A stretch of 64,000 nucleotides of DNA from Escherichia coli (GTDB taxonomy: Bacteria; Pseudomonadota; Gammaproteobacteria; Enterobacterales; Enterobacteriaceae), in assembly GCF_046105845.1 (NCBI RefSeq), contig NZ_CP151004.1; one strand, written 5' to 3'. The position numbers and the translations under genes are program-made. Numbering within the stretch: position 1 is the stretch's first letter; each line of letters begins with the position of its first letter. This document shows, piece by piece, positions 7,543 through 11,411 of this stretch. Below the pieces are notes generated by a model. That model was not told the origin of the DNA. It was given only the letters and a program-made list of their open reading frames with translations, and searched no databases.

Positions 7543-7797
7543 ATGGAATGCCGTCCGGGTTGCGGGGCGTGTTGCACCGCCCCTTCAATTTCCAGCCCTA
7601 TTCCCGGTATGCCAGATGGCAAGCCCGCCAATACGCCCTGCATTCAGCTTGATGAACAGCAACGCTGTAAAATTTTCACTTCGCCACTGCGACCGAAAGT
7701 TTGTGCGGGCTTACAAGCCAGCGCTGAAATGTGCGGTAACTCGCGTCAGCAGGCAATGACCTGGCTTATCGATCTGGAAATGCTGACCGCGCCTTAG
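7543..7797 (+). CDS. yeiW: Small cysteine-rich protein (84 aa)
   Basis: ATG at 7543 gives [15 protein letters not shown]… with 8 Cys; the track ORF from 7411 is 5'-extended. Its stop overlaps the setB stop in a convergent arrangement. Confidence 0.75.
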
Positions 7798-8975
7798 ACA
7801 TCTTTAATCCGCAGTAAGCAAAACAGAGTGGCGATAATCATCACCATCGCAAACCAGAACACAGCGTGATAACTCCAGATCTCGGCGACGATGCCCGCCA
7901 CTGATCCTGCGATGATCCAGCCCACGCGCGACGTATTGGTATAGAGCGTGGTGGCTGAACCTGCCTGACCGGGCATCAAATCCTGAAAATAGAGCATCCC
8001 GATGCCGCCCAGAATGCCAATAAAAATAGCATTTAGCAGCTGCAAGCCCAACAGAATGGCAGGTGAATGCGCCATCAGCATTCCTGCGTAAAAACAGACG
8101 CCACCCACGGCAGCAACGCGCATTAAGAAGCGCTTACCCAGACGTTTGGCGAAATATCCGGCAATCAACATGGTCGGGATTTCCAGCCCGGCGGCGGTCC
8201 CCATCATCACACCGGCCAGTTTCTCGGGAAGATGCAGTTCGTTGATAATAAATAGCGGCATGTTGATGATGTACAGGCTGTTCGAGCCCCACATCAATGT
8301 ACAAATGACAAACAGCAGCAGCGTATCGCGACGGTTACGGCGCGGCGCTTCAACCGTGCCGGTCGCCAGCGGAAGCTCTTTTTGCATCGACGGTAAAAAC
8401 AGCCACACCATCACGCCGCAAACAATAAACGCTACCGCTGCGCTCAGATACATTACCGTAAAGCTGAAACCCATCGCTAAGGCATAAGCCAGCGGCGGGC
8501 CAATGACCCATGCCAGTGAAACCTGAGCGCGTAAAAAAGAGCTGAACATCACCGCTTCACGTCCGGTTTTGTCAGCATGTTCACGGGCGAGGGCAAACAT
8601 TTGCGGGTTAGCAGTCGAGCCAAAGCTGCTAAGAAAGACGCCAACGAATAGCAAAACAAAGTAGTTGCGATTCCAGGCAAAAAGAGTGCAGGCCAGCACG
8701 CCTAACAGGCAGCAAAAGACAATCAGCGATTTGCGATCGCCGCGCTTATCAGAGCGCCCGGCGAGAAACTGACTTACCAGAATCCCAATGACAGCGCTGC
8801 CGGTAAAGAAGAATCCCACCATCGCCGGGCGGGCATGTACTTCATCAGTAAGAAAAATACTGAGTGTCGGGGTTTGCAGAGCGCCCGCAATACCGGTGAG
8901 AAAGGCAACGATTAAAAACGCCGTCGAGGTCAGATCAAACGATTTCGCGCTGGAGACTGCGGGGGAGTTATGCAT
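7794..8975 (-). CDS. setB: MFS sugar efflux transporter
   Basis: 393-aa ORF with a 12-TM hydrophobic profile, SetA/SetB family. Confidence 0.9.
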
Positions 8976-9241
8976 GCTGGTCGATCACTGGAAGAGGAAG
9001 ACGCGGAGTTTACGCTGCTTGTCAGAAAATAAACAGACAGCGAAATCAAAAGCGCCACGAATAATCAAAATGCCATTTCACTGTTGCTGATTGGCTGCTG
9101 ACGCTGCTGAAATGAAATTGCTGATAACGGATTTTCCCATCAGCAATTAGGAAAAATGACAAAAAATTGTGCAGCACATCAAACTTTTGCTCATAACTTT
9201 ACGGCTTTCCTTGCGTGCTGAAACAGAAGTATTATGCTTTC

Positions 9242-9255
9242 TTGAAACGTTTCAG
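9242..9255. promoter_or_regulatory. Cra (FruR) operator, fruB promoter
   Basis: Perfect palindrome TTGAAACGTTTCAG matching the Cra consensus half-sites (TGAAAC|GTTTCA), ~90 bp upstream of the fruB ATG. Confidence 0.75.
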
Positions 9256-9307
9256 CGCGATCTTGTCTTTAACCCTAAGCCAGGTTGGCGCTTTTTTTCT
9301 CATAGAA

Positions 9308-9328
9308 GCTGAATCGTTTCAATTCAGC
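9308..9328. promoter_or_regulatory. Second Cra (FruR) operator, fruB leader
   Basis: GCTGAATCGTTTCAATTCAGC, an extended palindrome containing TGAATC|GTTTCA, 15 bp upstream of the fruB ATG. Confidence 0.75.
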
Positions 9329-9342
9329 AAGAGAGGAGAACT

Positions 9343-10473
9343 ATGTTCCAGTTATCCGTACAGGACATCCATCCGGGCGAAAAGGCCGGAGACAAAGAAG
9401 AGGCGATTCGTCAGGTCGCTGCGGCGCTGGTGCAGGCCGGTAATGTAGCTGAAGGCTACGTCAATGGCATGCTGGCGCGCGAACAGCAAACCTCTACGTT
9501 CCTCGGCAATGGTATTGCTATTCCACACGGCACTACCGACACCCGCGATCAGGTGCTGAAAACCGGCGTTCAGGTATTTCAGTTCCCGGAAGGCGTCACC
9601 TGGGGTGACGGCCAGGTAGCGTACGTGGCGATCGGTATTGCTGCCAGCTCGGATGAACATTTGGGCCTGCTACGCCAGCTGACCCACGTACTGAGCGATG
9701 ATTCCGTTGCTGAACAACTGAAGTCAGCAACAACAGCAGAAGAACTTCGCGCATTGCTGATGGGCGAAAAGCAGAGTGAGCAGCTGAAGCTCGACAACGA
9801 AATGCTGACGCTGGATATCGTCGCCAGCGATCTGCTGACTCTTCAGGCGCTGAACGCTGCACGTCTGAAAGAAGCGGGGGCAGTTGACGCCACTTTCGTC
9901 ACCAAAGCCATCAATGAACAACCGCTGAACCTCGGACAGGGCATCTGGCTGAGCGATAGCGCCGAAGGCAATCTGCGTAGCGCGATTGCGGTAAGCCGTG
10001 CGGCAAATGCTTTTGATGTGGACGGCGAAACGGCAGCCATGCTGGTGAGTGTGGCGATGAATGACGATCAGCCCATTGCGGTTCTTAAGCGTCTCGCTGA
10101 TTTGTTACTCGACAATAAAGCTGACCGCTTGCTGAAAGCGGATGCGGCAACGTTGCTGGCGCTGCTGACCAGCGATGATGCGCTGACCGACGACGTGTTA
10201 AGCGCGGAGTTTGTGGTGCGCAATGAACACGGCCTGCATGCTCGTCCAGGTACCATGCTGGTCAATACCATTAAACAATTTAACAGTGATATTACCGTGA
10301 CAAACCTTGATGGCACCGGCAAACCGGCAAACGGACGTAGTCTGATGAAAGTTGTGGCACTTGGCGTTAAGAAAGGTCATCGCCTACGCTTTACCGCCCA
10401 GGGTGCAGATGCTGAACAGGCGCTGAAAGCCATTGGCGACGCTATCGCTGCTGGTCTTGGGGAGGGCGCATAA
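9343..10473 (+). CDS. fruB: PTS fructose-specific multiphosphoryl transfer protein (EIIA-M-HPr-like, FPr)
   Basis: 376-aa ORF with a C-terminal HPr-like domain (…[14 protein letters not shown]…). Shine-Dalgarno gagaggag at 9331-9338. First gene of fruBKA. Confidence 0.93.
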
Positions 10474-11411
10474 TGAGCAGACGTGTTGCTACTATCACCC
10501 TTAATCCGGCTTATGACCTTGTTGGTTTCTGCCCGGAAATTGAACGCGGCGAAGTGAACCTGGTGAAAACCACCGGTCTGCATGCGGCGGGTAAAGGCAT
10601 CAACGTGGCCAAAGTATTAAAAGACCTGGGAATTGATGTCACCGTTGGCGGCTTCCTCGGTAAAGACAATCAGGATGGTTTTCAGCAACTGTTCAGCGAG
10701 CTGGGCATTGCCAACCGTTTCCAGGTTGTACAGGGGCGCACCCGAATTAACGTTAAGCTGACGGAAAAAGACGGCGAAGTGACCGACTTCAACTTCTCGG
10801 GTTTTGAAGTCACCCCCGCCGACTGGGAACGCTTTGTGACTGATTCTCTGAGCTGGCTCGGTCAGTTCGATATGGTCTGTGTCAGCGGAAGCTTACCGTC
10901 AGGCGTCAGCCCGGAAGCGTTCACCGACTGGATGACTCGCCTGCGTAGTCAGTGTCCTTGCATTATCTTTGATAGTAGCCGCGAAGCGTTAGTAGCAGGT
11001 TTGAAAGCGGCACCGTGGCTGGTGAAACCTAACCGCCGCGAGCTGGAAATCTGGGCGGGCCGTAAACTGCCTGAAATGAAAGATGTGATTGAAGCTGCGC
11101 ATGCGCTGCGTGAACAAGGTATCGCGCATGTCGTTATTTCACTGGGTGCCGAAGGCGCGCTTTGGGTTAATGCCTCCGGCGAATGGATCGCCAAACCACC
11201 GTCAGTCGATGTCGTAAGCACCGTTGGCGCAGGGGATTCTATGGTTGGTGGCCTGATTTATGGCTTGCTGATGCGTGAATCCAGTGAACACACACTGCGT
11301 CTGGCGACAGCTGTTGCAGCCCTGGCGGTAAGTCAAAGCAATGTGGGTATTACCGATCGTCCGCAGTTGGCCGCAATGATGGCGCGCGTCGACTTACAAC
11401 CTTTTAACTGA
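10473..11411 (+). CDS. fruK: 1-phosphofructokinase (PfkB family)
   Basis: 312-aa ORF with the PfkB signature (…GAGDSMVGG…). Its ATG overlaps the fruB stop (taATGa). Confidence 0.93.
   Translation: MSRRVATITLNPAYDLVGFCPEIERGEVNLVKTTGLHAAGKGINVAKVLKDLGIDVTVGGFLGKDNQDGFQQLFSELGIANRFQVVQGRTRINVKLTEKDGEVTDFNFSGFEVTPADWERFVTDSLSWLGQFDMVCVSGSLPSGVSPEAFTDWMTRLRSQCPCIIFDSSREALVAGLKAAPWLVKPNRRELEIWAGRKLPEMKDVIEAAHALREQGIAHVVISLGAEGALWVNASGEWIAKPPSVDVVSTVGAGDSMVGGLIYGLLMRESSEHTLRLATAVAALAVSQSNVGITDRPQLAAMMARVDLQPFN

Follow-up and report, generated by a model that had tools for sequence, protein, structure and literature searches.

A conserved array of short GCTGA repeats as a candidate upstream regulatory module of the fruBKA promoter in Enterobacteriaceae

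The setB–fruB spacer and its GCTGA copies

The stretch of DNA analysed here, hereafter the window, comprises 64,000 nucleotides of an Escherichia coli contig (NZ_CP151004.1, assembly GCF_046105845.1) and contains the divergent genes setB and fruB together with the spacer between them, whose features are collected in Table 1. This spacer shows 100% identity to many E. coli chromosomes, is single-copy in 5413 of 5426 complete E. coli genomes and differs from that of K-12 MG1655 (where the coordinate equals 2272838 minus the window position) by three bases, none of them within the GCTGA cluster. A previous study reported that both genes are activated from one CRP site located in the spacer between fruBKA and setB (PMC3105977). 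Additionally, two Cra operators, O2 and O1, lie downstream of the cluster at the positions given in a preliminary description of this DNA. For E. coli, positions of +7.5 and +73.5 have been stated for the centres of the FruR sites (PMC7897506) and, since these values can be combined with the operator positions, the fruB transcription start was placed around 9242, with TATTAT as its –10 hexamer. Counted from this deduced start, the centre of the CRP site falls near –66.5.

Table 1. Features of the setB–fruB region in window coordinates
Feature	Position	Strand	Sequence	Remark
setB	7794-8975	-		K-12 annotation
setB–fruB spacer	8976-9342			367 bp, divergent genes
Site 1	9086-9090	+	GCTGA (TTGCTGAT)	Escherichia-specific, outside the conserved core
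2-copy 9-bp tandem	9094-9111	+	GCTGCTGAC GCTGCTGAA	Carries sites 2 and 3
Site 2	9097-9103	+	GCTGACG	Distal member of the conserved direct pair; t-GCTGA-[C/A]-G as family consensus
Site 3	9106-9113	+	GCTGAAAT	Proximal member of the conserved direct pair
Perfect 10-bp inverted repeat	9116-9148		AATTGCTGAT-N13-ATCAGCAATT	Arms carrying sites 4 and 5
Site 4	9120-9124	+	GCTGA (TTGCTGAT)	Semi-conserved; forms the left inverted-repeat arm in E. coli
Site 5	9140-9146	-	TCAGCAA on +, TTGCTGA[A/C]GC on -	Conserved inverted copy
CRP site	9164-9186		TGTGC-N6-TCAAA	Centre 9175.5; conserved alignment block
fruB –10	9230-9235	+	TATTAT	Inferred
Cra operator O2, fruB proximal	9241-9256		CTTGAAACGTTTCAGC	Same as the published operator (PMC11157272)
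fruB transcription start	near 9242	+		Inferred
Cra operator O1, fruB distal	9308-9323		GCTGAATCGTTTCAAT	Same as the published operator (PMC11157272)
fruB	9343-10473	+		K-12 annotation

The preliminary description had drawn attention to four GCTGA pentamers on the + strand (9086-9090, 9097-9101, 9106-9110 and 9120-9124), which span 39 bp; these positions and the sequence quoted for them are correct. It had also counted three of the copies as CTGCTGA, when only two have this form (starting at 9095 and 9104), the other two being TTGCTGA. Among the four direct copies, the longer GCTGAA form is found only in that at 9106. A fifth, inverted copy, TCAGC at 9140-9144, had been overlooked. The five copies, centred at about –154, –143, –134, –120 and –100 from the deduced fruB start, form an array located 25–90 bp from the CRP site, toward setB. 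The perfect 10-bp inverted repeat to which the two copies nearest fruB belong is confined to the E. coli/E. albertii lineage.

The density of the cluster was compared with chance expectation under a third-order Markov model. With both strands counted, the window contains 292 copies of GCTGA and a single cluster of four within 40 bp, when 0.007 such clusters per 64 kb are expected for GCTGA and about 0.2 for any pentamer. For a whole E. coli genome these figures would correspond to roughly 0.5 and 14 clusters, respectively; because such clusters are expected by chance genome-wide, the statistics of one genome are suggestive only and not decisive. The combined pattern of a direct pair plus an inverted copy is expected 0.03 times per 64 kb and was absent from 150 kb of other K-12 sequence. 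Pairs of the form GCTGA-N4-6-GCTGA were also observed within the fruB and fruK coding sequences (10120-10135, 10411-10426 and 10682-10697), nine such pairs being present in the window versus 1.75 expected, and the coding-sequence pairs probably result from CTG/GCT codon usage.

Conservation and geometry of the array in Enterobacteriaceae

A FruB scan yielded 80 loci, one genome per species and all from Enterobacteriaceae, in 72 of which setB is the divergent neighbour; 73 distinct species sequences, all from this family, entered the spacer alignment. A protein search directed at other Enterobacterales recovered FruB from Salmonella and E. coli only, so the comparison covers a single family. 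The setB–fruB spacer is about 330–372 bp long, and mostly 361–372 bp, though its sequence has largely diverged among genera, and this near-constant length suggests that it holds many spacing-dependent sites. Across the loci, the upstream segments carry 4.0 pentamers per 160 bp, when 1.4 are expected.

The preliminary description had proposed that conservation of the repeats be checked in other enterobacteria, and the outcome differs between the copies. GCTGA at 9097-9101, GCTGAA at 9106-9111 and TCAGC at 9140-9144 are each at least 90% conserved among the 73 spacers: sites 2 and 3 are each kept in 69 of the 73 species, the latter with the GCTGAA form in 88%, and site 5 in 68. In contrast, site 4 is present in 34 of the 73 and site 1 in only nine, with column identities of 10–30% for the latter. 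Overall, identity to E. coli reaches 96% in the motif columns versus 36% in the remaining columns of 9081-9164 (73 species), so that the sites are conserved well above the flanking non-coding sequence, as in a phylogenetic footprint. The conserved core therefore consists of two direct copies (sites 2 and 3) and one inverted copy (site 5), and the family consensus of the array copies reads t-GCTGA-[A/C]-G-[C]. Judging from this alignment, the core sites are under purifying selection across Enterobacteriaceae, and the outer copies at 9086 and 9120 are recent, lineage-specific additions.

The spacing of the core is also constrained. Sites 2 and 3 lie 9–11 bp apart from start to start, with a gap of 4–6 bp, or 4–7 bp as counted over the loci, in 76 of the 80 loci; the gap from GCTGA to the inverted TCAGC measures 26–29 bp in 72, and the direct pair and this inverted gap occur together in 66. 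The usual start of TCAGC among the genera is at –30 from the TGTG of the CRP core, but it moves to –19/–20 (–19 in Lelliottia and Yokenella) or to –10 (Klebsiella and Raoultella). The internal gap of 27 bp is retained in all these cases, although the array has moved by about 10 or 20 bp with respect to the CRP site. In helical terms, these shifts amount to approximately one and two turns, as a face-of-helix constraint would allow, but slippage between repeats placed 10 bp apart could also have produced them. In sum, the array combines the constrained spacing and the helical phasing of a binding-site array. However, the number and orientation of the copies differ among genera, which is loose for a single fixed oligomer and counts against the explanation preferred below. 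The order is three direct copies followed by one inverted copy (-> -> -> <-) in E. coli and Citrobacter, two direct and two inverted copies (-> -> <- <-) in Enterobacter and Phytobacter, and <- -> <- in Klebsiella, where an inverted copy replaces site 2. Additionally, sites 4 and 5 are separated by 1 to 15 bp depending on the genus, and four species retain the direct pair after loss of the inverted arm.

It had also been suggested that another factor controlling setB could bind the repeats. In this case, the copies would be operator or activator sites for the divergent setB promoter, 111–171 bp upstream of the setB start codon; the cluster is indeed closer to setB than to fruB, and the shared CRP site activates setB (PMC3105977). 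However, the promoter scan revealed no sigma-70-like promoter within the cluster on either strand, and seven loci from at least three lineages, in which setB is absent, replaced or truncated beside fruB, separate the two genes. In the Phytobacter group, a different divergent gene takes the place of setB; Siccibacter has lost setB, and its yeiW, which shares the fruB strand, ends 278 bp before fruB, leaving no divergent gene; and one Enterobacter-like genome has lost the 5′ half of setB. All seven keep GCTGA at –248/–238 and TCAGC at –214/–204 from the fruB ATG, the array thus having unchanged spacing in loci without an intact setB, Siccibacter included, even as the sequence among the pentamers has diverged. 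Because these loci without an adjacent setB keep it, the array belongs to fruB; a further factor stays plausible, and its assignment to setB is unlikely.

It was also proposed that the cluster was a simple-sequence coincidence, that is, a functionless repeat of GCTGCTGAN, generated by slippage in a GCTG-rich genome and located by chance beside the Cra operators. The abundance of GCTGA in the window, the expectation of about 0.2 clusters for any pentamer and the lack of conservation of copies 1 and 4 agree with such an origin, as does the tandem repeat, for which about 0.2% of E. coli genomes show variation in copy number (1 to 4). The 9-bp unit GCTGCTGAN occurs four times in E. coli strain E89, about six genomes carry three units and about three have a deletion of about 11 bp, so that variants with one, three or four units account for about 10–14 of 5413 genomes. 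The remainder, approximately 5399 of the 5413, carry two units; the two-unit tandem is nearly fixed in E. coli, the locus is neither hypervariable nor phase-variable, and TRF called no tandem array at 9094-9111. Moreover, the tandem is conserved across genera, which argues against neutrality. Copies 2, 3 and 5 are retained in 68–69 of the 73 species at constrained spacing, amid flanks of about 36% identity, and they survive the loss of setB. Since the core is conserved far above its neighbouring bases, coincidence was rejected for sites 2, 3 and 5, and as an explanation of the whole array it is highly improbable.

Other segments of the spacer also stand out in the alignment. The block at 9056-9080, AAATCAAAATGnCATTTCA, is strongly conserved and contains an 11-bp palindrome, AAATGnCATTT; its CATTTCA is kept even in the loci devoid of setB, therefore marking the outer edge of the fruB-associated region. 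The part of this block at 9072-9081 resembles one YpdB repeat, GGCATTTCAT, in single copy only. Near the setB start, at 9000-9036, two highly conserved blocks (CTGTTTATTTT and CGTAAACTCCGCGTC on the – strand) probably correspond to the setB promoter or leader; they matched no consensus promoter and no Rfam family, and a promoter and terminator scan of 8900-9400 gave no matches. On the fruB side, an extra TTCAGC at 9323-9328, nearly invariant, directly follows O1 just 5′ of the fruB Shine-Dalgarno sequence, so that O1 plus this copy reads GCTGAAT-N7-ATTCAGC in E. coli and TTCAGTTCAGC in most genera. A lone GCTGAAAC at 9217-9224 (+ strand), which is a perfect Cra left half-site, was observed inside the spacer between the fruB –35 and –10 elements. 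It is about 50–70% conserved, with TGCTGA[A/C] at the matching place in the setB-less lineages, and the activating FruR operator O1 of Vibrio cholerae sits where E. coli fruB has this copy (PMC7897506).

Cra, nucleic-acid structure and other factors as candidate explanations

The Cra consensus, gcTGAAtCGaTTCAgc, has GCTGAA as its outer half (PMC5888115), in agreement with the preliminary description. Because the hexamer of the array corresponds to this outer half and the locus is the primary target of Cra, the idea of Cra binding is a natural one. According to it, the copies would be low-affinity Cra (FruR) half-sites, each GCTGAA half-site accommodating one extra dimer, and contacts with the Cra bound at O2 and O1, either cooperative or bridged by FruK, would stabilise these dimers. 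The CRP site and the promoter would then be looped out and repression tightened until fructose-1-phosphate frees Cra. Loops in the LacI/GalR repressor family typically span distances like the roughly 130 bp between O2 and the centre of the array, and lac O3 and gal OE/OI are known as auxiliary operators for repression loops of this kind. The fru array resembles them in being a cluster of weak sites about 130 bp from the main operator, beyond the CRP site and the promoter, but the known auxiliary operators are complete pseudo-palindromes recognisable by the repressor matrix, while the array is made of isolated 5–7-bp repeats of mixed orientation. As regards a bridge, atomic force microscopy (AFM) pointed to complexes in which Cra dimers may be linked by FruK dimers, holding at least two operators (PMC11157272), and FruK-bridged Cra complexes are thus conceivable in this role. 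The array further shares with O1 and O2 the common locus, the outer hexamer GCTGAA/TTCAGC and the flanking TT...AA on one arm; TTCAGCAA is common to site 5 and the right end of O1, and position 8 of the family consensus, GCTGA[A/C]G[C], is a C, which is also the case in Cra half-sites. The further lone GCTGAAAC within the fruB core promoter points in the same direction.

Nevertheless, the comparisons made do not support a canonical Cra operator. Using a crude weighted consensus over 16-mers, with a maximum of 26, O1 and O2 score 24 and are the sole positions reaching at least 21 in 64 kb, whereas the best 16-mers of the cluster, beginning at 9086 and 9106, reach 16/26 with 10–11 of 16 matches. 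This is background level, given that 313 positions per 64 kb score at least 16; at site 3, the 16-mer in question is 9106-9121. The cluster therefore fails as a canonical operator, that is, a 14–16-bp palindrome gcTGAAwCGwTTCAgc with a central CG, and it also fails to be conserved over a whole operator length: only 5–7 bp are conserved per site, a central CG and a dyad partner at the spacing of an operator both being absent, while O1 and O2 are invariant over 14–16 bp across species. Compared with the left half-site GCTGAAWC, site 3 (GCTGAAAT) matches at 7 of 8 positions and is the only Cra-like left half among the copies, sites 1, 2 and 4 (GCTGATTG, GCTGACGC and GCTGATAA, respectively) matching at 5–6 of 8; site 5 reads GCTGATGG. 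In the motif derived from Cra ChIP-exo, the second A of TGAA is a position of high information (PMC5888115), but 55% of species have C instead at site 2 and 42% do so at site 5. In addition, the arrangement GCTGAA-C-TTCAGC found in Enterobacter is a geometry unusable by a LacI-type dimer, and the array sits at about –100 to –145 from the start, unlike the operators at +7.5 and +73.5. Five other Cra operators of K-12 (pykF, ppsA, pfkA, tpiA and aceB) are devoid of such arrays, having 0–2 extra pentamers within 160 bp versus 1.2 expected. The earlier proposal of extra low-affinity Cra half-sites is therefore not supported by these comparisons. Binding of Cra to these half-sites, a named special case (non-canonical Cra binding) of the explanation preferred below, is regarded as less likely than not, although it deserves consideration.

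The GCTGA and TCAGC arms could also act as a nucleic-acid structure, forming either a leader RNA hairpin or a DNA cruciform. For the inverted repeat of E. coli, the folding energy is –13.4 to –13.6 kcal/mol, with z values between –3.8 and –4.3, and the stems extend up to 9–10 bp in some species; when the spacers alone were shuffled, the mean z was –0.8 to –1.0, a drop in stability of less than one standard deviation on average. However, the E. coli pairs are retained in only 19–56 of the 73 species and the loops measure anything from 1 to 49 nt. No compensatory change was observed in the core, where covariation is restricted to the A/C position of the motif itself. An RNA hairpin or intrinsic terminator thus found no support, as neither a U-tract nor any other terminator-like site was detected in the scan of 8900-9400 and an Rfam search at E≤10 returned only noise. 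The four species that keep the direct pair without the inverted arm also speak against it, making this a weak and very unlikely reading of the array.

Several other factors were confronted with the array. Those reported for the spacer, namely CRP, Cra, FlhDC, PlaR, the RpoH holoenzyme and a predicted CyuR, provided none with a matching motif. The predicted FlhDC site lies within the setB coding sequence and not in the array (PMC9962212), the PlaR box ATnTGAAACnnnGTTCAnTT (PMC6958661) does not match the array, and the gSELEX peak of the RpoH holoenzyme is weak and near the fruB start (PMC5493296). A CyuR site was predicted from a motif scan at 9149-9171, reading GGAAAAATGGCAAAAAATTGTGC in K-12 (PMC11408624). 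This predicted site overlaps the CRP site and abuts the array but lies outside it; within it, the window strain differs from K-12 by one base (A versus G at 9159).

Promoter-like and other readings were equally discarded. GCTGATAA resembles the sigma-28 element, GCCGATAA, but it has no –35 and is not conserved, and TTGCTG as a sigma-70 –35 on either strand has no –10 at the proper distance in any genus. Sigma-54, sigma-32, CRP half-sites, CytR, RbsR, PhoB, CreB and ArcA were rejected by eye. YpdB was likewise rejected, its repeat resembling the 9072-9081 block, and a small open reading frame was rejected because the indels between genera are not multiples of three. UhpA was rejected by eye after comparison with the uhpT promoter, in which K-12 carries TTGCTGCTGA next to the UhpA CCTGA/CCTGG repeats, a superficial resemblance to the fru array. 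Both cases involve short repeats upstream of a CRP-dependent sugar-phosphate promoter, but the first base of the CCTGA repeat differs from the invariant GCTGA and the arrangement is not the same.

A candidate upstream module of the fruBKA control region

Taken together, the conservation, phasing and persistence of the core beside fruB suggest that it is a phased array of short protein-recognition sites forming an upstream regulatory module of the fruBKA promoter, a reading to which we assign a probability of about 60%. This module would comprise two direct tGCTGA[A/C]G copies one helical turn apart (9097 and 9106) and an inverted copy (9140) about three turns further on, at approximately –100 to –145 from the fruB start and just beyond the CRP site. 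A multimeric DNA-binding protein would occupy these sites on one helix face and, once bound, would modulate the CRP-dependent transcription of fruB and possibly also the divergent transcription of setB, through contacts with CRP or with RNA polymerase, or through a loop that reaches the operators downstream. Cra, binding half-sites in a non-canonical mode, is the only named candidate for this role, which some further factor could equally fill.

Oligomeric regulators acting on phased short repeats are well known, such as MraZ (TGGGN), ArcA with its direct repeats and the DeoR/AgaR-type repeats. The fru array is similar to them in its 5–7-bp repeats with a period of about 10 bp, placed on one helix face and variable in number and orientation among species, but it differs in sequence and in having an extra inverted copy three turns away. 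Another parallel is offered by CytR, whose repeat GTTGCATT is placed between two CRP sites. As in the CytR-CRP complexes, short repeats of flexible spacing and orientation are found beside a CRP site at a sugar/nucleoside-type promoter; the repeat sequence, however, is another one, and only one CRP site was reported in the fru spacer (PMC3105977).

No description or footprint of the array was found in the literature examined on the spacer, and the array is apparently unannotated. The fruBKA operon is the founding Cra target and a standard model of sugar-specific repression combined with CRP activation, and the usual depiction of its control region shows one CRP site together with two operators for Cra. 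If a third conserved element operates there, about 100–145 bp upstream of the start, this model would be incomplete, whichever protein binds. We tentatively consider it possible that the array provides a third input to fruBKA, either through a protein that reads the tGCTGA[A/C]G repeats or through a higher-order, for example FruK-bridged, assembly of Cra on isolated half-sites. Since the element is short, defined at the level of bases and easily mutated, its function is directly testable. The array could bear on the formation of higher-order Cra–FruK complexes and on the response of fruBKA to signals besides exogenous fructose, and such a third input, if true, would determine how strongly, or from which threshold, the fructose PTS is expressed across Enterobacteriaceae.
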